In this document: one piece after another, positions 5,285 through 62,304 of the stretch
Layout of the letters: each line of letters opens with the position of its first letter
How positions within the stretch are numbered: the first letter of the stretch is position 1
Source: Botryllus schlosseri
Taxonomy: Eukaryota
Assembly (NCBI GenBank): GCA_051294905.1
Contig: CM119372.1
Coordinates: 13,642,001-13,706,000 of the forward strand
DNA length: 64,000 nt
Direction of reading: 5' to 3'
Made by a program: the position numbers and the translations under genes
The notes under the pieces: generated by a model
Databases searched by the model: none
What the model was told of the DNA's origin: nothing
Seen by the model: the letters and a program-made list of their open reading frames with translations, nothing else

Positions 5285-21117
<15,833 letters not shown>

Positions 21118-24369: not shown

Positions 24370-24954
24370 CAGGGTTGTAATGACTCGAGTCATGACTCGA
24401 CTCGAGTCACGATTTTTTGATGACTCGACTTGACTCGAGTCATTTTCTCAAAATACGGAAATGACTCGACTCGACTCGAGTCAATTTGTGTATTGACTCG
24501 ACTTGGACTCGAGTCATTGCGCATGACTCGAACCAAGTCATATGACTCGAGATTCAGCCGGCCAAGACCGACATTCTATTGTAATTTCGAAGAACAGTAA
24601 AGCAACAACTCTATTGGGATTACGTCTATTGGTACTGGTACTTGAAAATGCGACCAGAAACTGTTAAAAGTGTAGAAAATAAGTATATTATAAATGCGAA
24701 CCATTCGATATCACCAAACAGAGTTATAAGAGTAGCTTTAACAAGACTTTAACTGGAAACTGAGCAGTCAACACAATAACTTGGACTCGGACTCGAGTCA
24801 TAATACGACGACTCGGACTCGAACCTCTGCTCGATGACTTGGACTCGGACTTGACTCGGTAGTGAATCGAAAATGACTCGACTTGACTCGAGTCAAAACC
24901 GTAAAAGTGGGAATGACTTGTGAGTCGGAGCTTTGTGACTTGGTTACAACCCTG
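24370..24954. mobile_element. hAT MITE with GACTCGAGTC repeats
   Basis: CAGGGTTGTAA...TTACAACCCTG; perfect TSD ATTGTCGA. A sister copy lies at 55271-55800. Confidence 0.85.
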
Positions 24955-28341: not shown

Positions 28342-29628
28342 ACCGCAAGTTGCCAATGTAGCGAAATATACTCTATGTATGCAGACTGCAGAGTTTGTCA
28401 GAGATTAACTACTTTAAAATTTTTCGAAGTACCCATGTCGCTACGTCTAATTCTACTTGAGTAGATCTCCTGACTGCTCTGATCACCTCCATATGCACAT
28501 GACTCAATGTAAGCGCGGATTTTGAGCAATGGTCATCGAGAATAGTATATAGCCTACTTGAGATTTCTATTGTATTTCAATGACTTATATCGATTTCAGG
28601 ATCTCCAGCATCTTTATACAGTAGGTGTGTTCAAAAATGACTTTTTTTCTCACATTCCACTGACCACTTGACAAAATTGTTAGGTTATCTAATTGAAGCC
28701 TGCACGCCAAATTTGGTTCACTTCCAACCAGTAGCCGCATTGCTACAGGAGAAGAATTTTTATTTATTTAATATACAAGAATGAATATAAAAAAATTTGT
28801 CGTACGTTGTTCTACCGTCCGATAAAGTGAGACTAAGTATCCAATGTCTATAAACGTTCATATGTTATGAGATCTCATAATTACATGATGGGCATTTACC
28901 GTTGGAAACTGCGAGAGTACACTGTTAAAAATATTCTATGCCAAATTACTGGTCTGGTCCTGGCAGCAGTTTTACGACTCTGAGACCAGTAAATTTGAAA
29001 AATATTTTCCCGTAAATATTATTGACCGTAATTTATTTTACAAATACTGACTGTTAAAATTTTTACGGAATACTCCCGTTACTTGATGTAACGGAAAACG
29101 GCTGTAATACCAAGTTACTGGTCTAGTCCAGTGCAGCAGTTTTACGCTGATGAGACCAGTAAATTCGAAATAACTCTCCCCGTAATATGATTTTACATAT
29201 GCTGACCGTAGGAAATTTTACGGAACATTTTCGTAACCTAAGGTAACAGAAATCTGCTGTAATATCAATATACTCGTCTGGTCCCTTGCAGCAGTTTTAC
29301 GTTCCTGAGACCAGTAAATTTGAATCAGGTTTATTTGGTGCGGGAACACGTAAAAAAAAAAGTAAGTGTGGATAATGACGGAAATCCAGTCTTTCTTGTG
29401 GAGATCATCGGTCAGCAACTGCCTGAATGAAGAGGGCTTCGTCAAAACTTCAGCAGCAGTTAAAGGACTGTACTTTGGGCCATGCTCTTTTGTAGGTTCT
29501 TCTATAATCTGAACAAAGATTATGCTGTCATCAACACCGTTACAATTTGGAAACTTCGAGACGCTATAGTATGACATACTGCGACTTTTCATATTCTTGT
29601 CAATTTCTCAAATAATGATGGCCTAGGA

Positions 29629-30494
29629 TAGCGATGTCGAACATAAGGCCAGCAGGCCGCATGCGGCCTGCGAAGCAATTCTGAGTAGTTTGAAAAAACC
29701 CTGTATTACCCAGCACATTTTCTAACAAATGTTGAGATATTATTGTAAGAAATGCTTCCCGCAAGGCCACAAATGTCAAGATCATAGACCGTAATATAAT
29801 TATCCGACAGTGGTGTTATGGTTTTACTCTAGTCGTCATCAGGAACAAGTTGGTGATACTGACATCCAATTCCAAAAACTCCAACTGTGCACACTGAGTT
29901 CATATTTTTATGAAGAAATGAGCCAAAAAGTAGTTATTCGTGAAGTGAAAAAAAGCTGTTATATGCAGGTCGCATGGAGAATATAATAGTTAAAAAAATA
30001 CAATTCAAATATATTTGGTCGCACTGCTGTATCACTTCTACTCAAAGGCCCCAGACAGACAGAGAAACCCGAATGACGATTAATAATGAGCCAAATTCTA
30101 ACGTCTGGTTTACAATTAAATCACTTGTGTTCCTTAAAGCGCATACGATGAGTTAACGGCAGTTTACGATTAAAGCAAAGGGTGCATACAAATATGTCAG
30201 CTTATTCCGTGGTTGAAGTCAGTGTTTAAGCGGTTGAATTCAAACGATCAATCTTTGAATTTTTGCCAAACTTCCGTTGTTTGCGAGTAAAGGTGCTGCT
30301 AGAATATATCCATATGATATGATCGTGAATGTTATGTAATATACCAAAATGTATACAGGATTGATAATAAACTATTCAAGCGAAAAGTAAGGTCGGGCGT
30401 TTTGATGTACCGTAACATTTTGGAATGATTTGACTGATCCGGCCCGCGAGCGGTTTGTAAGTTTGAATCTGGCCAGTGACGCAAGTTGAGTTTG
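29629..30494. mobile_element. hAT-type MITE
   Basis: GCCTAGGA on both sides (29621-29628, 30495-30502); GGCCGCATGCGGCC subterminal motif; right TIR partly deleted. Confidence 0.6.
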
Positions 30495-30652
30495 GCCTAG
30501 GACTTCGTACCTGAATCATCTGGCACTTCTTCGATGGCAGTCAGACATCGAAAAGTGTTCACCATGATCACCGATGAATGTTTTCCATGAACACGAAAAA
30601 AAAATTATAAACGTCAAAATATATTTTTTTTTGTGCCTTTCGAAAGACGAAT

Positions 30653-31081
30653 GTTAGGGTTGGGGTGGGGGGTCTTAGGGTGGGGGAAAGGGGGATATTA
30701 GGGTTGTCGGAGGCGATATTAGTGTTAGGATTGGTGGATGGGGATATTAGGGTTGGCGGAGGGGATATTAGTGTTAGGATTGGTGGATATTAGTGTTAGG
30801 ATTGGTGGATAGTAATATTAGGGTTGGGGTATGGGGGGTATTAGGGTGGGGGAAAGGGGGATATTAGGGTTGGCGGAGGGGATATTAGTGTTAGGATTGG
30901 TGGATGGGGATATTAGGGTTGGCGGAGGGGATATTAGTGTTAGGATTGGTGGATATTAGTGTTAGGATTGGTGGATAGGGATATTAGGGTTGTGGTGGGG
31001 GAAAGGGGGATATTAGGGTTGGCGGAGGGGACATTAGTGTTAGGATTGGTGGATAGTAATATTAGGGTTGGGGGAGGGGGA
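30653..31081 (+). repeat. G-rich TTAGGG-containing minisatellite, left arm
   Basis: Variants of a ~49-bp unit ATTAGGGTTGGCGGAGGGGATATTAGTGTTAGGATTGGTGGATGGGGAT. Confidence 0.9.
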
Positions 31082-31083
31082 GA

Positions 31084-31137
31084 TAGCGTAGTCGTAACGA
31101 TAAGCGCCCACCAATCTGGCGGACCCGGTTCGATTCC
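31084..31137 (+). promoter_or_regulatory. tRNA-derived Pol III A/B box cassette (SINE head) inside the TIR; mirror copy at about 34801-34854 (-)
   Basis: TAGCGTAGTCGT (A-box-like) and GGTTCGATTCC (B box, 31127-31137), followed by TCGGAGGTTTATGTGGGCTCCTC, which is shared with other SINEs in the window. Confidence 0.6.
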
Positions 31138-34100
31138 CGTCGGAGGTTTATGTGGGCTCCTCTTCCCTCGCCGTTGCCGCTCTTACGGAGACAAAAAAGA
31201 CCAACGAAAGAAAGCACTCACAAGGAATGGAAAGAACTAGTAGAAAGGACCGCGGCTTCAATAAGATCAACATCGAAATGAACTGCGACATCGGGCACGG
31301 CTTCGATAAGATCAACATAGAAAAGAACTGCGACATCGGGCACTCTAGACCGAGGTGGAAATTAGATTAAAAGGATCGCAACTGCATGCGTGTCGTTCGA
31401 CATCCTCCTATCTGCTCATTACATCGCATTTTGTCTTATCGCATGTACATTGTGTGTGACTTGTTCAGATGAAACATATAACCCAACGATTAATAATATG
31501 ATATTATTACTATTAGGGTTGAGGTGGGGAATGTTAGGGTCCATTCATTACATTCAGCACCAATTACCATCCGTTCAAAAGATACATATTTTCCAATTGC
31601 CAAGACAGAAAGTATCGAATCTTTCATTCGAGCACGGGGTTAGATCGTTCTAGTTCATTACAAAACTGATTCAAATATAAGCGAGTGATTAATATGATGC
31701 CTATTGAATCAATAGGTTACGTCAATTCACGCGGAGTCATCATTACAAACGATGGAAAAACATAAGCGGGTGAATTCAAGCCTGCAGGCTCGTGCCGCTA
31801 GGACATACTTTGCGATAGGTGATGCTGGAGCAAACTGATGATAATCAGTATGTTGATATTTCATCCTTTCGAATACACGAAAAGATTGCGATTGAACGAA
31901 AAAATTGGAAGGTATTGAAACGATATTTAGTAGTCGTTGAAACCGGACATTCGGACACCACACTTCCTGTAGCCATAAGACAATGTAAAGAGGCACTTAC
32001 GTCGTTGTAGCCTTGTAGGATGGGCAGTTGGACACTGAATATAAAGTAACAGAAGTGATGGGATGATAGCCTAATGAAGTGGCATGTTTCGGAATGATGG
32101 GCCGATATATCAAATTGAGATTTGAATGTGGACGTTCTTGACGACTGTCGGGATGGCCTTCGAGGCTTTTAGCGATGTCTTTCCCAAACTTATTTCCACG
32201 GCGTATTTCAATATCGAATATATTTTACATATAGATAGAAAGTCTCGAATCGAGAGGTGAAGTCAATACACGCATTCATGGTTAACACGACCATATGGAA
32301 TTAGAGATAACTGACCTACCGTATGTTAGTTAATTATCTATAATGGAATCAAGATTATATAGGCTTGCATCGCTGGGATAGAGATTGACCTTAATAATGT
32401 TATAGTGGACCGGACTTTCTGCCAGCACGTGAACGACCAACTGAGGCAAGGCGATATATACCCTTCGAAGAATGATGATCTTCATCGGAATCCATTGTGA
32501 CACACAGAAAACGAATGTCATCAGAAAATTGGCACTAGCCAACCCAATATTGCATAATGACATATTCAAACTTATCTATAGTATACGTCCATAATATATT
32601 TAGGTCGATAGAACGTAATTGGGCTACCGCTACGGTCAATTCTAATGTCTATTGCGTGCTACACGATAAAGGCGCGGTATGTCTTGGTGAACGGGACTTT
32701 GGAATGTTCATTGCCAACCTAATAATATTGATTTTCTCGACGGCAAATTGAAAGTTCAAAATTATCTGGCTGGACGTCTCTGAACTACCAGTAGGCAAAA
32801 CTACTCTTCAAAATATTGTGAAGTATACACAGTAGAGATCGTGTACAACTTAGTACACACGCAGAATCAACTTGTCATGAAAATACATACCGCATAGGCT
32901 ATTTATCGTGTATCATACAATACTCATTAGGATTGATTGTGAATGCTGCATGGCATCAACTGTATTTGTACTGCGTCTGCTTCACAAGTTGTGTAGGAGT
33001 ATATTTACCAATAGTTTGAAAGAATAGTTTTGGCTACTGGTCATTCAACGACGTCTATCCCGATACTTTTCAACTTTCAATTTGCCGTCGAGAAAATCGA
33101 AATTATTAAGTCCCGTTCGCCAAGACATTGTTATCTATAATTCCATATGCTCGTGTTCTTCCATGAATGCGTGCATTCACTGTAAAAACTGGGCCCACCT
33201 TTAAAGGAGGATACAAAAATAGCTGTCACCAAAAATGGTAGGCATGCCAACCATCCAGTCCAGTTTTTGAGAGTCTGTAAAATATTCAATGTTAGGTCAT
33301 AAGTTGATCATTGAAAACATATCCGATAACATTAAAGGGTGGCTATCAGAGGTAGTATAATTGACGAAGTACTATGTCTGGAAATATTCCTCTACTTCCA
33401 TTCCTCCATAGTTTTTATGTGTTGAAACTTTGTACTGTTTCGCTACTTATACTCCAAGCAATTTAAGAACGTTTTCAAAAGGACTACTTCTACTCGTACT
33501 TGAGTTGATTTTAGCTTCCTTTTCTAAGAGATGCCATAGGACGTACGGCACTTATCAAATATTTGGCGTTTTCCATTGAATGAAATATAGAAATAGTAGT
33601 ATGGAAACAGCTTACACATAAGCTTTCTGATGTAATCTGGAACATTTCCTAATTTTGTCAGGCATTGAGCCGAGCTGGACACTTTTCCTGCGATTATTCT
33701 TGGTAGATCAACTCTACAAAGGTCTTCAATGCAACCAGCAGTATGGCAGAGTATTTTCAATTCTTCGAGGATCTGGAAAGAATTTAGCTATTGATACTAT
33801 CGATGTAAGATTAGGATTCAAGATCTTACCCAGCGTGCCTCCACAAGAAGGGGATATTGTTCCAAGACATCTCTGGTTGTCACTTCTGTTACTTTATATT
33901 CAGTGTCCAACTGCCCATCCTACAAGGCTACAACGACGTAAGTGCCTCTTTACACTGTCTTATGGCTACAGGAAGTGTGGTGTCCGAATGTCCGGTTTCA
34001 ACGACTACTAAATATCGTTTCAATACCTTCCAATTTTTTCGTTCAATCGCAATCTTTTCGTGTATTCGAAAGGATGAAATATCAACATACTGATTATCAT

Positions 34101-34856
34101 CAGTTTGCTCCAGCATCACCTATCGCAAAGTATGTCCTAGCGGCACGAGCCTGCAGGCTTGAATTCACCCGCTTATGTTTTTCCATCGTTTGTAATGATG
34201 ACTCCGCGTGAATTGACGTAACCTATTGATTCAATAGGCATCATATTAATCACTCGCTTATATTTGAATCAGTTTTGTAATGAACTAGAACGATCTAACC
34301 CCGTGCTCGAATGAAAGATTCGATACTTTCTGTCTTGGCAATTGGAAAATATGTATCTTTTGAACGGATGGTAATGGGTGCTGAATGTAATGAATGGACC
34401 CTAACATTCCCCACCTCAACCCTAATAGTAATAATATCATATTATTAATCGTTGGGTTATATGTTTCATCTGAACAAGTCACACACAATGTACATGCGAT
34501 AAGACAAAATGCGATGTAATGAGCAGATAGGAGGATGTCGAACGACACGCATGCAGTTGCGATCCTTTTAATCTAATTTCCACCTCGGTCTAGAGTGCCC
34601 GATGTCGCAGTTCTTTTCTATGTTGATCTTATCGAAGCCGTGCCCGATGTCGCAGTTCATTTCGATGTTGATCTTATTGAAGCCGCGGTCCTTTCTACTA
34701 GTTCTTTCCATTCCTTGTGAGTGCTTTCTTTCGTTGGTCTTTTTTGTCTCCGTAAGAGCGGCAACGGCGAGGGAAGAGGAGCCCACATAAACCTCCGACG
34801 GGAATCGAACCGGGTCCGCCAGATTGGTGGGCGCTTATCGTTACGACTACGCTATC

Positions 34857-35572
34857 TCCCCCTCCCCCAACCCTAATATTACTATCCACCAATCCTAACA
34901 CTAATGTCCCCTCCGCCAACCCTAATATCCCCATCCACCAATCCTAACACTAATGTCCCCTCCGCCAACCCTAATATCCCCATCCACCAATCCTAACACT
35001 AATATCCCCTCCGCCAACCCTAATATCCCCATCCACCAATCCTAACACTAATATCCCCTCCGCCAACCCTAATATCCCCCTTTCCCCCACCCTAATACCC
35101 CCCACCCCAACCCTAATATTACTATCCACCAATCCTAACACTAATATCCACCAATCCTAACACTAATATCCCCTCCGCCAACCCTAATATCCCCATCCAC
35201 CAATCCTTACACTAATATCCCCTCCGCCAACCCTAATATCGCCCTTTCCCCCACCCCAACCCTAATATTACTATCCACCAATCCTAACACTAATATCCAC
35301 CAATCCTAACACTAATATCCCCTCCGCCAACCCTAATATCCCCATCCACCAATCCTAACACTAATATCCCCTCCGCCAACCCTAATATCGCCCTTTCCTC
35401 CACCCTAATACCCCCCACCCCAACCCTAATATCCCTATCCACCAATCCTAACCCTAATATCCCCTCCGCCAACCCTAATATCCCCATCCACCAATCCTAA
35501 CACTAATATCGCCTCCGACAACCCTAATATCCCCCTTTCCCCCACCCTAAGACCCCCCACCCCAACCCTAAC
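34857..35572 (-). repeat. Same minisatellite, right arm, with more units
   Basis: Reverse-complement array about 290 bp longer than the left copy. Confidence 0.9.
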
Positions 35573-37422
35573 ATTCGTCTTTCGAAAGGCACAAAAAAAA
35601 AATATTTTGACGTTTATAATTTTTTTTTCGTGTTCATGGAAAACATTCATCGGTGATCATGGTGAACACTTTTCGATGTCTGACTGCCATCGAAGAAGTG
35701 CCAATCATCTTTTCCAGCGTGATTGCAAACTTTTCTGGCAATACTCCTTTGCATCGCACGTCCAATGTATTTCGCACGGCATCGTGCTAGAAGCGAGAGG
35801 CGAAATGATCCCTTTCTATCACATAAGCATTCGACGTCATGATTCATAATGCCATAACGCTTCAATTTTCGTGTAGTTCAATGTCAGAAAATGTAATACA
35901 TTCTTATAAGCCATAGCTTCTGTTCACCATTAAACTGTAACGAAAATACATACGTCTTCAGAAACAGGACTGAGAATAACTTGCCAGATTTGAGCTCGGA
36001 TACTGCTATACCTACAATATCTGCTATCAACACCTGGAATATTCTAAAGCTAAAGTTAAGCTGTGGCTTCGAAACCCTCAATATCTTACAGCAACGCATC
36101 TTGTTATTATCCAATACGAAAACATCGCGTCGATATAATATCTGTCTCGGAACATTCAGCCGCACGTGCTCAGGCTCAGATATGTCTGACGTCTGACGCC
36201 ACTATGTCTGGAATATGTATGACGTCACAATGTACTGTTCGCTCGAACAGCTACGAATTCATGATCAAACAATTCACAAGGCCATTCGCAGGAAAAAGGT
36301 AAAGGACGTCTACTACTCTCGTCTCAATGGCAAAGGAGCATGGCAGCTAAACACCAGCTCCAGTGTTTCGATATATAGTTTGCATCATACATGCGTGTCT
36401 ACAATGGTGGCAGAACTGGTCCAACAGATAATTACACAAAATATCATACCTGCAGTAAAACTACATAACATACCAAATTCGCTTGCCATGCTACTATTGC
36501 TAGACCTTGATGTCTCAAAGGATACTATTTTTAAAGCGATAAAGACGATGGTATCTGCAATGCCCAAATGTTCGGATACCATTCACCGATTAGCAATCAG
36601 CACGGCCATCGATGTCGTAATTTGGTTGATGATTGAAACATGATGTAATAACGAAAATCATATATATATATATATTATATATGTCCATAAGACCGTAAGC
36701 GTGTAAAATGAACGAATTGTGAGTTCAATAGCAATGTTGCAAATAATGATTATCCAGTAAATCGCTTTTACGAATGCAAAAGTAAATCCGGAATACTTAT
36801 TATCCAGTAAATTGCTTTTACAAATCCAAAAGTAAATCTGAAATACTGGTTATCCCGTAAATTGCTTCTACGAATTCAATCTGTAATTTTTTTACCCTCT
36901 AAAAACAAGTAAATTTACTTTTGACGTGCCCGTATATTAATTTAACGGGCATTTACCGTTAATATAACTGACGGGACAAATTTACCGGTATAATTTGGGT
37001 AAATCTACGAATATTTCTAAGAGTGTAAGTATCCAATGTATATAAACGTTCATAAATTATGAGATATCATAAATATAGACATTATAGACATTGGATACGT
37101 AGTCTCACTTTATCCGACGGTAGAACAACGTATAGTATGCCCGATGGGCATGTTGGGTGCTGGTACGTGCTGGTCGTGTTACGTACGACTTTACACTTGC
37201 CTATAAATGCGTGATACTGAAACATCACCAAACACTGATCGTGTAAAATCGTTATTGAAATAAAGCTGTAGTTCTACGATGGAGTTGAAGATGTACAAGA
37301 ATTTCCTACCGTTTTTTATAATGCTCCAAGCTGGCTTCGGAAAAAGTTTGACAGGTAAGCAAAATGCAGGAAAATATTCATTTTGCCGCAGTTGGATTGG
37401 ATTTACTGTGACAGTCGCTATG

Positions 37423-39559: not shown

Positions 39560-42500
39560 CGCTATAGGATACAATGTATTTCCTATACTGACAAAATGCG
39601 AGTCCATTATTCGTGATGGCTTCGGCGGTCACATCGCTCTCATTTCCCCATCGCCATACCTCCCAGCGTTGCTGCAATTTCCTGTCATGACTGCTGTGCC
39701 TTTGGTAATGCGCCGTTCTTAATTATTCGTTGTATGCGTGCGTTCTGCGAACAGTGTGTCCTATATAAGCCAATGACCTTTTCACTAAGTATCGCAATCA
39801 TCATCATCATCGATAATATTTGCTGCTCACGGCTGATCCCCACAAAGCACGCTAAATATGTTTGAAATGTCGCCAAATTCATCCCTAATCGCAAGGCCAG
39901 TGGTTCTCAAACTGAGGGGCGCGCCTCCCTTGGGGGTGTGAAAGCATCTGAAGGGGGTGCGAAGTCGCCTGTGAGTCGTATCATCTATACACCAATGCTA
40001 GATTGTGATTGATACCACCGGCATTGGTCCGATCAGAATATGTCTCTGAATTAGGAGTAACTATATATGGTGGATGCGTGACTGCTGTAGGGGTGCTAAC
40101 TGATGCTTTTAGGGTCTGTCTGTCAAGTAACTGTGCAGAGTGCGTAGAAGGCCATGCCATATGCCATGTATAAGTAATTTTATAACAGCAGAAAATCGGA
40201 GGTGGTCAAAGTAGTCAAGACAGTTACTCCAGCTCTCTTGGTGGAGGCTTACCCGGGTAATGCCGGAGCGAGAGTCGAGCGGAAGCTGGGTGGCAAAGAT
40301 CCACCCATGTCCTAACATGGAGACGTAAAACTCATGTTCCCTAGAGATGGACTAACAATCCACCCTAGAGGTTACTATTGTTTGCGAACCTAAAACGAAT
40401 GAAAAGGGGAGTGCCGTTGCGCCCCCTAGCAGTAGTACCGCGGAGCAGCCCGAGGGCTATACTGCGTTCCCAGATTGTGGCCAAGTCTACAAGATCAGGG
40501 GACTGAACGTCCACATGCGAGCGAAACATCCAGCCATCTTCCACAGCGAGCAAGCACCTGACCCAACTCAGAAGCAAATGCTGCCTTCTTGTCGGATGGA
40601 TGAAGGTGCTGGAGCCGTGTCCATGGACCACCAATGGTCCGATGACCTAAACGCCGCGATAGGCGATAACTCATTCGAGGTGTTTTGTCTAGCCGACATC
40701 GTCCCAGGCAGCCCGGAGAACCAACATCTCGTGGACATTGAATACTGTAAGGTATTTGGGGACAAACCCATGAGAGACCGCGCAGCCAGAATACCACCTC
40801 CCCCCCCCCCCCCGTAAAAGGCAAGAAGGCGCTGGCAGTACTGGCGTTGCCAGAACAAATACATCCGCGACCGGGGCAAATGTGCACGCTGGATCCTATC
40901 CGGCGATTATATGGATTCGCATCAAGTGCGACTCCAACTTTCCAGAGCTGAGAGGTGTTGGCGGCAGATTTTCGAGCGTGGCTCCGAGGCTGATAACAGG
41001 ACTCCGGAACCCCTGAATCCCCCGGTGTGTGATCTGGTCCAACCAATCGAGAGACTAGAGTTCGATGCTGCGTTACAATCGATGAGATCTTCGGCCCATG
41101 GACCATATGGGATGACAGTGGAGGAGCTCAAGAGCCTTAATAGGGAAACCTTGCGAGCTAACTATAACTTATGGCTACTCGCTGGATGCCCACCAGCAGC
41201 AGCAATCACGATCCTGATACCAAAAGTGAAAGCAGCGGAGGACCCGGCATAATATCGCCCGATCACCACGGAAAACATGAATCTCCGATGTTTCCATCGA
41301 ATCCTGGCTAAGAGGCTGGAGTCCGGGTTCAAACTCGACCCTAGACAAAAAGCCTTCACTGCAGGGGACGGCCTCATGCATAATACCTATCTGCTACAGA
41401 GTATGATTGGATATGCGAGAGAGCAAAGGAAGCAATTGTGTCTCGTATCGATAGATCTCGCAAAGGCCTTTGATTCGGTGTCACAAGAATCCGTTCTTGC
41501 TGCATCGCGCAGGTTGGGAGCTGCGGCACCCTTTCTTGCCTATGTCAAAGCATTCTATGACGGGATCTCGACACGCTTATGCGTCTCCGGGAGATGATCA
41601 GAAATTATCAAAACCCGGTCGGGTGTAAGGCAAGGAGACCCAACATCGGGCTCTCTTTTCAACAAAGTCATTGACTGGTGTCTGTCCTCACTCGATAGCG
41701 AATTGGATTTTCGCATCGGCGATGTCCGTGTACCATAGGCTACATGGCATTCGCTGATGACATAATCCTGACAGCTACAAGCCCAAGGCGCTGCAGGCGC
41801 AGCTAGCCACGCTAGAAAAGGAATTGATGACATGCGGGCTTAACATCAACCCGCAGAATTGTATGAGCCTGTTTATTCAAACTCATGGGACAAAGAAGAA
41901 CTGGTCCGTAAATCCGCGATCGATCGTGAGAATAGCGGGTAAGTCAGTCAAGGCCATCTCCATGGAGGAGCCATTCAAGTACCTAGGAGTAACCGTGAAT
42001 GCGCGCTGCACCCGAGTGGAAGTGATGGATCGACTGAAAAGGGAACTCGCTGAAACAACGCGAGCCCTCCTGAAACCGCACCAACGGCTCTATATGCTGA
42101 ATATGCATATCGTCCCAGCAATGTACCCCCAACTAGTAGTTGCCAATGCAACGAAGAAGTACCTATGTCAAATAGACAGGGCGATTCGGGAATCGGTGCG
42201 ATACTGGCTAAAGATGCCAAAAGATACACCAAATGCATTCTTCCACGCTACCCAAGCAGACGGCGGGCTCGGGATTGTTTCCCTTATGAGTCAACGGGTG
42301 CCAGTATTGAAAACTCGCTGATTTGCAAAGCTTGAGCAATCAGAAGATCCTGCTATTCAAGCAGTACTTGAATACCGAACAGCTCATGGCCGCTCAATGA
42401 AGCCGACAAACGAAACGACAAAAACACTGGACGAGAAAAACAGATCTGAACTTCTCTCAATGGTGGATGGTCGCTGATTAACAAACGCCGACAACGTCGG

Positions 42501-43938: not shown

Positions 43939-44860
43939 ATTCTTTATTCACAGTAAAACTGGTAGATACACACATAATCCGGGGAGCAACCTGCCCCCAA
44001 AGGAAAATGGCGAGATTGGAGTAAATTTTTAAAATTTCAGTAATACATTCAAATTGTTATTCCTATGCAATACACGGAGAAGTCAGATTACAGAATTGCA
44101 GCAGATGAAGAATTGGCAAGGGTTACAGAGCAGAGGTAGAGATGATTGAAGATGAAGAATCGAAATTACAGAAATTATGCTGTGATTCACAAGCGTAATT
44201 TTAGTCCAGTGGTGCATTCAAGGCCTTCCGAAGAATGTGCACAGTGCCCAATAATGTGATCTTCTGGATCATGTCGAATCGAACGTTACCCGGAATTTGT
44301 TGGATATGTCTCATGAGTTTTTTGCTCACGACCCCTGTAGCACCAATGACTATCGGTACAATGTTTATTTTGCATCGCCACATTTTCTCACATTCCATTT
44401 TGAGGTCTGCGTATTTGGAGTATTTTTCTGATTCTTTTTGCAGTAGGTTGTGATCAGCTGGGACAGCCAGTTCAATGAATAAGCATTCTCTTTTCTTTTT
44501 TAGTTTGACGATTATATCCGGGCGGTTGCTCCTGATTTCGCGGTCAGTTATAACTGGTACATCCCACAGAATTTTTACTTGTTCGTTTTCTGTCACTGGT
44601 GCTGGGCTGTAATCGTACCAATTTTTTGTCGAAGTGGTGATGTTAAAATGTTTGCATAATTCAAGATGAATGTAGTGACCAATCCTATTGTGTCTCCATG
44701 TGTATTCGGTAGCTGCAAGTGCACCACAGCCGGACATGAGATGTGCTACAGTTTTATTTTGGTTGTGGCACATTCTGCATTTGCCGTCCGTGTTTTGCTT
44801 CAGAATTCTTTTGCGATAGTATTTTGTAGGAAGCGATTGGTCTTGTGCTGCGAAAATGAA
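43939..44860 (-). mobile_element. 5'-truncated R4/Dong-like non-LTR retrotransposon (CCHC + RLE; ORF end 44201-44860 is uninterrupted)
   Basis: FIFAAQDQSLPTKYYRKRIL..CRMC....TVAHLMSGC..LA..EY..RHN, ILWD..V.TDR....NRPDI, IELAVP.D, EKYSKY.DL, PIVIGATG. Flanked on both sides by (TAA)n. Confidence 0.85.
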
Positions 44861-45213: not shown

Positions 45214-46685
45214 TTCATACAAGTTGAGTAAAGCCGAAAATTTTCATCGCGCTTCGCGCTCAGTGGATACGGAGTAACCAGTCTGATTTCACGAAAGTAT
45301 CGGTGAATGTAATTTGGGTAGGGGGTTGGCGTGGTTCCGTCCACACCGCATTGTCGCCCTTTGCCCATATGAAATATTTCATCACAGTATGTATGGCTCA
45401 TCATAACGTTTGAAACTGATGTTTCGCAATCTAGCATTTACTTATCATATCGTAATCTAGCAGTCCATAGCGTGTCCTAATCTTACTTTTCTTTTGTTCT
45501 AGAACTGTTTTAGCATACCAGCCTTCGAAACTTTCTGGACTAAAAACATGAAATACGGGCCTTATAATATGGGGGAGTGCGCCAAACCATGATATTTACT
45601 AAACGTGCTGTTCGATTAAACATAGGATTAGTATCGCATTTCCATATCAATACTATCATTTTCATCCCATGACGCGGACGAGCACTTATGCTGTTGAAAA
45701 TTGAATACCTCCTGGTATGCATCAATATGAATCAAGCCTGGCACTTTTCGCATATTTCCATATCAATACTATCATTTTCATCCCACGACGAGGACGAGCA
45801 CTTATGCTGTTGAAAATTGAATACCTCCTGGTATGCATCAATATGAATCAAGCCTGGCACTTTTCGCATAGCTCAATTTGCACCATTTGACAATCCATGC
45901 GAACGAATTATGATCGTTTTCACAACTACTTACTTACTTGAGTAGATTTAAAGTCAGTCAATTCTACTTCTACTTCAAGTAGTTTTAGGTTGCTTTAGTA
46001 CTTCTACTCGTACTTGAGTAGATATTTTCGTCGCTACTTCTACTTCTACTTGGGTAGCTTTCTTGACTACTTTAACCACCTCTGCCGTACTTCGAAAATT
46101 CAATTTGACTTGAATTGTGACTTGACTCGTGACTTGACTTGACTCGACTTGACTTGACTCAAGTCACCTCCAAAAATCGAGTGACTTGACTTGACTCGAG
46201 TCAAAATGTGCAATGACTCGAGATGACTCGTGACTCGAAGGTAGTGACTTGATCCCAACACTGGTAAAATCACGAACAAAGATGGAGGAGATACGTGTCG
46301 CCGGTATAGTGCTGGACTGGAGAGGTTCCTGGGGCGTTAGAAGCGCGGAAGAACTGATCAAATCTGTGGGTATGACAGTCGCGGACCTCCGGGAAATTGC
46401 AGCTATCGTATGCGAGGGAGGTTTCCACGAATGGATCATGTGGAGCAAGTCGACTTATCGCATTGCTCGAAGGTCGCGTTATAGACGATGAATTGCCCGA
46501 AAGGGTGACGAAGCCCCGAAGACTCCGACGCGTATTATGGGTTAAGCTTTTTCCATGCTCTTGCAGAACGAAAGCGAATAAAGCATGCTTAGGACTATAG
46601 CATTTACATGGTGTGTTAGGAGGGCCTGTGACCGAGCTAGCGCAGCCCTGTATACTGCACTAGGCCTTTATAAGCAATAAACCTT

Positions 46686-47547
46686 CGAAGTAGAAGTAGC
46701 GACTCAAAAATCTACTCAAGTACGAGTAGAATTAGTCCTTTTTAAAGCAGCCTAAAACTACTTAAATTAGAAGTAGAACTGACTGACTTTAAATTTACTC
46801 AAGTAAGTAAGTATAGTTGTGAAAACGATCGTAGTTCATTTGCATAGACCAGGGGTGTCAAACTCAAATTGCTCGCGGAACTGAAACTAATTTGAACTCA
46901 AAGTATGATACTGGTAATTGAAAGAGAAACATAAATACTACTTTTAAAAAGCGGAAAATGTATTTCATGTCTTTTGTCCAGAAACTTTCTACATAGTGGT
47001 CTGCTAAAACGGGAGTAAAGCTAAGAAAAAGTCAGAGTCCACTTTTCCAGATTAGTACACGCCAGGGGCTGCTAGATTATGATATTACAGGTAAATGCTA
47101 GATTGCGAAATGGTAGTTTCAAACGCTATGAGGGGCCATATTTACTGGGATGAAATATTTTATATATGGGCGACATTGCGGTGCGATCGCATCCACTCAA
47201 CCCACTACCTAAAATTATATTCACCAATACGTTCGTGAAATCATATTAGTCTACTGTGCGCGAAGCGCGACGACAATTCTGAGCTTAATACAACTTCTAT
47301 GAAAATTAAACGTTGATACTCCGTGAAAACAGCTCTCAAATTCCTCGGAATATCTTTCTGATTAAAGGATGAAACTACTTCTACTTGACAAACTGAAAAT
47401 AGCGAAAAGTAAATAAGTAGACCACAAAATATCACGAAGTAGAAGTAGAAGTATCGGTAGATTAGATCTACTTGAGTAAGCAACTACTTGAGCAACTACT
47501 TGAGTACTTCAAAGAAGTAGAAGTACTTCGTTACTGACCACCTCTGC
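46686..47547 (-). mobile_element. TACTT-repeat element copy, truncated
   Basis: Ends GTTACTGACCACCTCTG; reverse-complement similarity to 43665-46084. Confidence 0.7.
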
Positions 47548-58509: not shown

Positions 58510-59098
58510 TATAGAAATTAAACATGGAACGGCAACGACCGATTTTGCAGCTTCGTTCCGCTTCGCAGAGGCTGGAGAGGAGAATTGTTTTGCGTAAGCG
58601 ACTGTAGGATTTCTGGCAATCCAAAAGCTATCTTCCCGAGCGCAGAAATTATTGAATCTAGTCTTGATCGAAAGCTACTGTTGCACCGATTCCGAAAATA
58701 TAAATTTAAATTATGATCAGGCACTGATCCACCTAGAATCTGTCCTCCAAGCTGAAATATCGGCATTGTTCAGAACAATCGGGTAACTGCAACACAATGA
58801 CCATAACAATTACCCGTTGCGACTCTCTGATTGTTCGAACAATGCCAATATTTCGACTTGGAGGACGGATTCTAGGTGGATCAGTGCCTGATCATTATTT
58901 TAATTTATATTTTCGGAATCGGTGCAACAGTGGCTTTCGATCAAGACCATATTCAATAATTTCTGTGCTCGGGAAGATAGCTTTTGGATTGCCAGAAATC
59001 CTACAGTCGCTTACGCAAATCCACTCTCCACTCCAGCCTCAGCGAAGCGGAACGAAGCTGCAAAATCGGTCGTTGCCGTTCCATGTTTAATTTCTATA
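58510..59098. mobile_element. Foldback MITE with ~270-bp arms
   Basis: 58510-58779 is the inverted repeat of 58829-59098; flanking duplication ATTGTAC(TA), 7-9 bp. Confidence 0.8.
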
Positions 59099-61933: not shown

Positions 61934-62304
61934 CGTGTAACTGTCAGTAATTTTGCGAAGAAATTCTGGTAACTTGACTTCACAGCTAAACTAAGGTAAT
62001 ATCACATATCAAAATGTAAAATTACAAGCTACGCACAGTTATTGGCTGCGACCGGTAATTCGTTGTAAAATTTACAGAGATTTTCCAGTAAATCTACCAG
62101 ATTTTTTACAGTGTAGGTATGATGTTTATTCAATCAATCATTGAAATTTATATAAAGAATATATCGTGGTCTAATGTAAAAAATCTTGCAGGAGTACGGG
62201 ATCCATCTTGATTTGATATGTTCGTTGTATCATAAAAGCAAATCCGTGCGATTAGGGTGTTGGCTACTGTATAAAAGGTTATGGGATAATATCGGTAGCA
62301 AGTA

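Follow-up and report, generated by a model that had tools for sequence, protein, structure and literature searches.

A young foldback element with TG..CA ends in Botryllus schlosseri, with an integrase-like transposase as its favoured mover

The stretch of Botryllus schlosseri DNA analysed here (64,000 nucleotides; hereafter the window) carries, at positions 30515-35709 including duplications, a foldback element of approx. 5.2 kb with two long inverted arms, which raises the question of whether this structure is a genuine transposon and, if so, what kind of enzyme moved it. A first-pass annotation, made from the sequence alone, described inverted arms, termini of TGGCAC..GTGCCA (i.e., TG..CA) and an ATCATC duplication, and read the whole as a real, probably recent and non-autonomous insertion. 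The arms are present at 30521-32058 (1538 nt) and 33880-35703 (1824 nt), the termini are borne out by the sequence, the ATCATC copies lie at 30515-30520 and 35704-35709, and the reading itself is supported. The features of the element are as follows:

30515..30520: left target-site duplication (TSD) of 6 bp, of which the final 3 bp give the 3-bp TSD reading
30521..30650, plus strand: left core terminal repeat of approx. 130 bp, beginning TG; putative transposase recognition end
30651..31080, plus strand: left G-rich subterminal satellite, with units of 21-29 nt and higher-order periods of 49 and 166 nt
31081..31491, plus strand: left SINE-like repeat, with Pol III boxes, an AT-rich tail and high depth
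31492..32058, plus strand: unique inner part of the left arm, without a supported gene
32059..32844, plus strand: left inner segment, into which the arm usually continues across the family
32844..32845: central deletion point, where other copies have extra sequence
32845..33177, minus strand: right inner segment, with old inverted similarity to parts of the left one
33178..33879, minus strand: fragment of a CACTG-ended (EnSpm-like) element, standing in place of the inner right arm
33443..33512: short piece of a high-copy repeat, interrupting the gene fragment
33616..33772, minus strand: probable coding exon of 52 codons, with AG and GT at its borders
33880..34446, minus strand: unique inner part of the right arm
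34447..34857, minus strand: right SINE copy, an identical mirror of the left copy
34858..35574, minus strand: right satellite array, the longer of the two
35575..35703, minus strand: right core terminal repeat, ending CA
35704..35709: right TSD, ATCATC
28920..37025: enclosing older CACT..AGTG element, outside the foldback element and given as context only

Each arm consists of a 130-bp core, a G-rich satellite, a tRNA-type SINE and unique DNA. When the left arm was aligned to the right, 129 of 130 core positions (with one 1-nt gap), all 411 positions of the SINE module and 565 of 567 positions of the inner unique part (mismatches at 31562 and 31983) were identical. The difference in arm length resides in the satellite arrays, which measure 432 nt on the left and 718 nt on the right and differ in order as well. 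Identity declines inward: the arms match at 99.6-100%, the inner pieces at 72-90%. The inverted termini are perfect and the flanks outside the duplicated ATCATC are unrelated to each other. Folding of the core end and the SINE head was no better than that of shuffled sequences (z = 0.01, -0.38 and -0.75).

The stretch or part of it was present in 20 of the 24 listed sequencing runs (10 studies; one may be the source sample), and half or more of it in 17; none of the runs holding it was labelled as RNA. In contigs from four studies the family is seen to be multi-copy, and both its arms and its centre are longer than here. In run X4, one arm contig had a depth of 510 with zero differences over 469 nt (compared to 6.6-26 for several other listed X4 contigs and joints), and a depth this high free of differences points to a young multi-copy family, although it is no copy count. 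In other copies the terminal inverted repeat (TIR) extends up to approx. 32264, the contigs showing a 32059-33880 joint in three of four runs and a 32267-33174 joint in one of four, and nearly all arm depth continues into 32059, not 33879. Past 32844 the contigs continue with letters unlike the copy studied here (209 in X4 record 24, 272 in X14 record 3 and 702 in X20 record 19); relative to other copies, the 30515-35709 copy is centrally deleted.

An X20 contig with the left-arm allele bridges the left junction, its shorter side measuring 249 letters. As the right junction (33879/33880) is bridged by none of the listed contigs, this join may be private to the copy or an assembly join; contig cover is absent, and hence uninformative, at 33809-33879 in X4 and at 33265-33834 in X20. 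The unbridged junction, the nil depth of X4 and X20 over 33835-33879 beyond the arm and the near-identity of the arms could suggest that the paired arms arose in assembly, or by inverted duplication in place, and never transposed as a unit. This is extremely improbable, as a direct duplication stands exactly at both ends, the satellite arrays are unlike in length and order, two substitutions and one gap separate the arms, and contigs from other samples show both left-type and right-type arm continuation. Overall, these data support a genuine young mobile unit that is non-autonomous and TIR-bearing.

The SINE in both arms was overlooked in the first-pass annotation. The 31081-31491 module and its mirror show the features of tRNA-derived SINEs, i.e., A and B boxes (at 31084 and 31127), high copy number (depth of 30,000-63,000 vs. 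approx. 550 for the adjoining arm in X4 contigs) and variable flanks, with loose contig ends varying at the mirror position 34439-34447. No tRNA homology was found by ARAGORN or Rfam, as is usual for diverged SINE heads. The module sits near the inner end of the left satellite, a satellite-like unit resuming at 31505-31540. At 12 of 19 listed variant rows, most X4 contig depth differs from the SINE of the 30515-35709 copy, and at each of these 12 positions the two arms share one base.

Between the arms, the right inner segment matches the left one in inverted blocks of 21-87 nt with 72-90% identity, and CACTG begins precisely at 33178, where this similarity ends. A separate CACTG (EnSpm-like) element has left one of its ends at 33178-33879; this segment has the 5'-CAC terminus expected of EnSpm/CMC elements and lacks the second end. 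Neither this end nor the old inverted similarity of the spacer was noticed in the first-pass annotation. An apparent similarity by eye between 32059-32264 and the CACTG segment was discarded (score 25; 95th percentile of shuffles, 31).

The same fragment bears on coding capacity, which had been reported as absent. On the minus strand, 33513-33879 contains three phase-compatible exon pieces with GT..AG introns, of which 33830-33879 and 33513-33550 stay in frame with 33616-33772, and the spliced open length was equalled in 3 of 150 shuffles. X17 record 12 spans 33616-33773 and departs at the donor, a weak indication since its status as RNA is a guess. The fragment thus probably holds a piece of a spliced gene, judging from these sequence patterns, so that "no coding capacity" is right as regards a transposase and probably wrong for the spacer. 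The exon pattern may resemble that of proteins labelled "SAMD3-like". The repeat piece at 33443-33512 matches 46707-46776 and 45964-46026 and coincides with a depth spike in the 33455-33549 bin. Protein searches with the 52-aa exon retrieved none of 8 candidates at E ≤ 10 and no usable Atlas match, the 87-aa frame of this exon had no PDB match, and a further search with a two-exon read-through retrieved none of 88 candidates; all of these are weak tests for short diverged exons. A single read-through match (E = 9e-4 in 1.84 billion) was rejected as a tandem-repeat translation, and a short bacterial-looking frame in a metagenome locus (L004) was dismissed as chance. Animal EnSpm/CACTA (CMC) elements (PMC6004678; PMC12730594) share with the nested fragment the CAC terminus and a probable second, non-transposase gene; the fragment differs in having one end only, and no homolog was retrieved.

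Five GT..AG-bounded open pieces from 34186 to 33455 might further suggest that the element was built around its own spliced gene, starting in each arm and running inward. We regard this as very improbable, as 32059, and not 33879, receives nearly all arm depth, an X14 contig (record 4) that covers the exon region departs from the reference at 33882 for 80 letters, an X17 contig passes both arm "introns" unspliced, and the last piece enters an unrelated high-copy repeat; the five-exon model starting in the arm was dropped on this contig evidence. The "mirrored ORFs" of the first-pass annotation are chance frames of duplicated arms, none of the 74 frames searched (≥ 22 aa, within 31400-33900) having reached a Pfam cut-off.

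What moved the element must then be judged from its ends and TSD. No transposase, integrase or viral family was found among the 74 frames (Pfam cut-offs) or among 36 frames searched against PHROGs. The 63-aa arm frame matched Pfam CH_2 only below the cut-off, its Atlas matches were all < 0.9, and 0 of 7 homolog candidates were retrieved. Exact look-ups found 0 of 3 present, phage records had no match to the element, and its terminus had no match of 22 nt in metagenome contigs. Three 17-nt matches of the terminus in viral contigs were set aside as chance because they did not extend and lacked inverted ends.

Among TSD lengths from 2 to 12, only 3 and 6 match (i.e., none from 7 to 12), and two random 6-mers from the window are identical by chance in 0.04% of cases. 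The duplication had earlier been called a clean 6-bp TSD; 6 bp does match, but so does 3 bp, as ATCATC is a doubled trimer. Base composition prefers 6 bp over 3 bp by about 15:1, since doubled trimers are approx. 15 times as common in the window as tripled ones (1.9% vs. 0.13%); the TSD length is that of one copy. A true TSD of 3 bp, made by insertion into a trimer run, would point to AcademX or another 3-bp group. Long TIRs occur in Academ elements. AcademX makes 3- or 4-bp TSDs (PMC10045372), with which the 3-bp match, the less likely reading, would agree. Given the rarity of tripled trimers and given that 3-bp elements of the CACTA type end in CAC, unlike the TGGCAC terminus here, we consider such an origin distinctly unlikely.

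With TG..CA termini and a 6-base footprint, the element has no clean fit to any described group. The stronger statement that no described group fits is not supported, as GingerRoot elements have 6-bp TSDs and 5 of 77 end in TG..CA (PMC6839031, PMC10045372). On sequence features, IS3EU/GingerRoot, treated as one lineage in PMC10045372, appears to be the closest described group. The 6-bp TSD matches theirs (although 3 bp matches too, in this one copy), the element lies within their 3.9-12.9-kb size range, DDE-less copies exist among them too, and its 130-bp core compares with GingerRoot TIRs of 100-150 bp (PMC6839031), whereas the whole arms measure 1.5-1.8 kb. Modular arms of that length do not appear in the available portions of the IS3EU/GingerRoot descriptions, and no DDE transposase was found in 30515-35709 (0 of 74 frames at the Pfam cut-off). 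The usual IS3EU ends are TA..TA, typically TAYGG..CCRTA (PMC10045372); TGGCAC..GTGCCA lacks this signature and agrees with the minor TG..CA type of GingerRoot at two bases only. Ginger1 and Ginger2/TDD (PMC2836005) share the TG..CA ends and have an integrase-like enzyme and 40-270-bp TIRs, but their TGTNR start and 4-5-bp TSDs are not seen here.

A hAT6-type transposase could also have moved the same foldback structure. Many hAT elements have subterminal repeats, and one Atlas structure row for the arm frame is a ZBED1 RNase-like cluster, below the bar. The earlier assumption that hAT elements make 8-bp TSDs is too narrow, as families with 6-bp TSDs are known inside an animal hAT lineage (hAT6, a Repbase group cited in PMC12730594). 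We nevertheless consider a hAT6 mover unlikely, as no hAT sequence was found (0 of 74 frames with a hAT domain), the search with the arm frame found no homolog, and hAT TIRs mostly measure 10-25 bp (PMC3942097). Polinton/Maverick elements have 6-bp TSDs and TIRs of up to 1447 bp (PMC8097293), which would be compatible with a gene-less palindromic satellite of such an element, or of another virus-like element, having atypical ends and moved by a retroviral-type integrase. This origin is improbable: Maverick ends are short tandem di- or trinucleotides (AGT, AG, AC; PMC8097293), unlike those here, the three 17-nt viral-contig matches were unextended, and no remnant of a core gene (pPolB, integrase, ATPase, protease or capsid) was found, although non-autonomous derivatives would lack these genes too. 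Of the earlier interpretation, an integrase-type mover making 6-bp TSDs thus still seems most likely, while a linear virus-like parent is not supported as likely, Polinton end motifs and genes being absent.

In architecture, the element resembles Tetris of Drosophila virilis (PMC4079207) and Galileo (PMC3573991), which have long modular TIRs (an outer domain, a tandem-repeat domain unequal between arms and an inner domain), a variable non-coding middle and TIR extension in non-autonomous copies, as described for Galileo (PMC3573991). Modular arms with internal tandem arrays are likewise those of Mutator-type foldback elements (Tetris, FB). The TSDs differ, however, measuring 8-10 bp in Tetris, which is placed in Mutator (PMC4079207), and 7 bp in Galileo, a P element (PMC3573991). 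Because long TIRs are recruited from internal DNA in non-autonomous copies (PMC3573991, PMC4079207), they are a poor classifier; much of each arm here is satellite and SINE.

On balance we favour, with moderate confidence, a foldback DNA transposon that resides in an animal genome, is non-autonomous and depends on an integrase-like DDE transposase supplied in trans. Such an enzyme would recognise the approx. 130-bp TG..CA core ends, perhaps aided by the subterminal satellite, cut the element out and re-insert it with a 6-bp staggered cut; judged by ends and TSD only, it would most likely belong to the neighbourhood of IS3EU/GingerRoot. The arms may have grown when one end, with its satellite and inserted SINE, was copied onto the opposite end, a repair or conversion process that would keep the outer arms near-identical while inner parts drift; the identity gradient and the identical SINE are the basis for this proposal. 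In this reading the present copy is a rearranged derivative that lost central sequence at 32844/5, received an EnSpm-like insert at 33178 and then underwent a deletion joining the insert to the arm at 33880. Since the IS3EU TAYGG end is also absent, the family could tentatively be seen as a non-autonomous foldback branch of an undescribed integrase-like lineage with TGGCAC ends and 6-bp TSDs, separate from IS3EU/GingerRoot, Ginger, hAT6 and Polinton alike; we consider this doubtful.

The foldback element is inserted into an older CACT..AGTG element (28920-37025), whose ends are alike at 15 of 17 positions, with TA on both sides and subterminal arrays of 155 and 50 bp. This enclosing element had also been overlooked; for it, 34 frames in the flanks gave no match at Pfam cut-offs.

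The significance of the finding is modest, as foldback elements as such are already known. What is unusual is the combination of foldback architecture, a 6-bp TSD and TG..CA ends, which our literature search did not find (it may be in Repbase or Dfam). If the partner transposase proves integrase-like, one more lineage would have evolved foldback forms; if the undescribed integrase-like lineage is real, foldback architecture would extend beyond mostly Mutator and P elements, and the longer contig copies (at least 700 extra central letters) would lead to its transposase. The identical SINE in both arms, together with the inward fall in identity, lets the family serve as a natural record of the building of long TIRs and of how their arms stay alike.

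The element at 30521-35703 is a real non-autonomous foldback transposon, represented here by a rearranged copy whose arms each carry a SINE and whose spacer includes an EnSpm-like fragment. The first-pass annotation had placed both arms correctly; TGGCAC starts each end and ATCATC is found on either flank. Outside the satellite, the arms differ by 2 substitutions (31562 and 31983) and one 1-nt gap, and the 286-nt difference in arm length is located in the G-rich arrays (432 vs. 718 nt).

Parts of the foldback element
30515-30520 and 35704-35709: ATCATC flanks
30521-32058, plus strand: left arm
33880-35703, minus strand: right arm, mirror of the left
Outermost part of each arm, 130 bp: core
30651-31080 and 34858-35574, next inward from the core: G-rich satellite
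Inward of the satellite: 411-bp module, with Pol III boxes A (31084) and B (31127)
31505-31540, inward of the 411-bp module: extra satellite-like unit
Innermost part of each arm, ~520 bp: unique DNA
32059-32844: left inner segment
32845-33177: right inner segment
33178-33879: CACTG fragment, part of the spacer between the arms

The satellite units centre on TTAGGG/TTAGGA-like cores, with the G-rich strand oriented towards each end, and represent a possible G-quadruplex or protein-binding array. No further copy of the core end was found within the 64-kb window.

When duplication lengths of 2 to 12 were compared at the flanks, matches were found at 3 and 6 only. As ATCATC is a doubled trimer, a 3-bp target-site duplication (TSD) within a trimer run looks identical to a 6-bp TSD, so the 6 bp claimed previously is the favoured length but 3 bp fits the same flanks. 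Trimers in the window are doubled in 1.9% and tripled in 0.13% of cases (i.e., doubled ~15 times more commonly), and a TSD of 6 rather than 3 bp is thus favoured, but not shown, by these frequencies. An enzyme from a 3-bp-TSD group such as AcademX, with which the flanks would also agree, is quite improbable given this rarity of tripled trimers.

Contigs from four public runs (X4, X14, X17 and X20; four studies) were compared with the window sequence over 32030-34850. The summed depth over the right-arm mirror of the 411-bp module was 30,000-63,000 in X4, as compared to ~550 in the adjoining arm, and each of the four runs showed many unrelated loose ends where the module borders the inner arm; in both respects, the module behaves like a dispersed high-copy SINE. 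Neither ARAGORN nor Rfam detected a tRNA in it. In 12 of the 19 variant rows listed for the module, the majority of X4 depth has a base differing from the window copy, and the left- and right-arm modules are identical at 411 of 411 positions. The simplest reading, requiring few assumptions, would be a single old SINE insertion in one end that was afterwards copied onto the opposite end. Pol III B-box matches also occur at 24825 and 4088 (both minus strand), perhaps as heads of a different SINE family.

The stretch was contained wholly or partly in 20 of the 24 runs listed (10 studies, two organism labels), and half or more of its words in 17 of them, where one of the listed runs may be the source sample of the window. 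In X4, an arm contig with 0 differences over 469 nt had a depth of 510, as compared to 6.6-26 for several other listed contigs and joints; contig depth is not copy number, and the difference implies many nearly identical arms. This X4 contig and arm contigs of X20 and X14 continue into 32059; the X20 contig has the left-arm allele, and its shorter side measures 249 letters. A second X4 joint connects 32267 to 33174 on opposite strands (depth 171) and shows copies in which the right arm extends through a variant form of 32059-32267 before reaching the right inner segment; the family TIR is therefore ~200 nt longer than that of the window copy. At 32844/32845, contigs of three runs part from the reference and continue for 209, 272 and 702 unlike letters, which indicates that longer copies exist and that the window copy has lost central sequence. 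Between the inner segments, inverted similarity persists at 72-90% in five blocks, and identity of arms and inner segments declines from the ends to the centre. Over 32030-32219, summed X4 depth was 710-1066, as compared to ~530-550 in the arm, an excess indicating that additional copies, or a related family, share this part.

Searches of 74 frames against Pfam, and of 36 of those frames against PHROGs, detected no transposase, integrase or viral family; to this extent the earlier view that the element lacks coding capacity held, but the spacer contains probable exon pieces. A CACTG terminus starts at 33178, precisely where likeness to the left inner segment ends. In the 702 bp between this point and the arm, three minus-strand pieces (33830-33879, 33616-33772 and 33513-33550) share one open frame and are separated by GT..AG introns of 57 and 65 nt. 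An equal open spliced length was obtained in 3 of 150 shuffles for this region, which was selected after being seen. Protein searches found no homolog of these pieces, whose exon pattern presumably resembles that of proteins labelled SAMD3-like. One X17 contig spans 33616-33773 and then, at the predicted donor, exits the reference for 57 unlike letters, a weak hint of splicing of exon 33616-33772, as this is a single contig and its run is one of two guessed to hold RNA; DNA contigs of X4 and X14 read straight through the donor. An X14 contig of the fragment quits the reference at 33882 and takes no part in the depth at 33955, so the native continuation of the fragment is not the arm. We therefore rejected a model in which a gene of five exons begins in the arm, and read 33178-33879 as the end of a separate EnSpm-like element. 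Since no contig among those listed bridges 33879/33880, the join may be private to the window copy. An EnSpm-like element may have inserted in the inner right arm, with a later deletion joining its fragment to the arm at 3 letters of microhomology.

The foldback element lies in an older CACT..AGTG element, itself within a short palindromic repeat, giving three levels of nesting. In 34 flank frames of the enclosing element, no Pfam match reached the cut-off. Short spliceosomal introns and non-LTR remnants in the window point to an animal host.

Surrounding features
28803-28919 and 37026-37132: palindromic repeat halves, inverted, 90% over 80 nt, split by the CACT element
28920-37025: enclosing CACT..AGTG element (EnSpm-like), 8.1 kb, flanked by TA on either side, 15 of 17 end bases alike, with subterminal arrays of 155 and 50 bp
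36197-36643, plus strand: 148-aa frame within the enclosing element, Tc3-type HTH score weak and below cut-off, possibly a decayed transposase piece
40356-42321, plus strand, and 44201-44860, minus strand: broken non-LTR retrotransposon frames, zf-RVT score weak, which we take to be R2/NeSL-like
18280-21117, plus strand: Ser/Pro-rich frames with a PLDLT motif (presumably CtBP-binding), probably host exons encoding a transcription regulator
62068-62113, minus strand: additional CACTG terminus with 23-bp subterminal repeats
58510-59098: palindrome, 590 bp, 90% self-complementary

The architecture of the foldback element is known and its pairing of ends and TSD is unusual; searches of an open-access library found no paper describing a foldback element that combines TG..CA ends with a TSD of 6 bp. 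GingerRoot shows 6-bp TSDs, TIRs of 100-150 bp and TG..CA ends in 5 of 77 (PMC6839031), GingerRoot and IS3EU form one lineage with complete IS3EU families ending TA..TA (PMC10045372), and the IS3EU end signature is TAYGG (PMC12730594). The foldback element works alike but does not carry the usual end signature, and was thus not filed as a member. On balance, we lean towards an integrase-like DDE transposase as the enzyme, either within the IS3EU/GingerRoot lineage or beside it; its placement inside that lineage is tentative, and an undescribed sister lineage beside it is unlikely. A hAT6 enzyme is improbable; hAT6 families have 6-bp TSDs (PMC12730594). The TGTNR start and 4-5-bp TSDs of Ginger1 and 2 (PMC2836005) are both absent, as are the tandem AG, AGT or AC end units of vertebrate Mavericks (PMC8097293); a Polinton-type integrase is improbable. 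Tetris is close in architecture but has TSDs of 8-10 bp (PMC4079207). Animal CACTA elements have CAC ends and 2-bp TSDs (PMC6004678).

The foldback element combines terminal inverted repeats and a flanking duplication without an enzyme, and belongs to a young family of many copies that includes deletion variants. A DDE transposase supplied in trans would bind the core ends and mobilise it, cutting the target with a 6-bp stagger. Arms would lengthen when one end is copied onto its counterpart, a process described in non-autonomous copies of Galileo (PMC3573991), and satellite units may be secondary binding sites by analogy with Galileo and Tetris, for which this role of subterminal units has been suggested (PMC4079207). 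Repbase sorts non-autonomous elements by TSD length and first 11 bases (PMC4455052), and Dfam contains terminus profiles (PMC7805219). Overall, there is a small chance that this foldback element leads to an undescribed transposon lineage.
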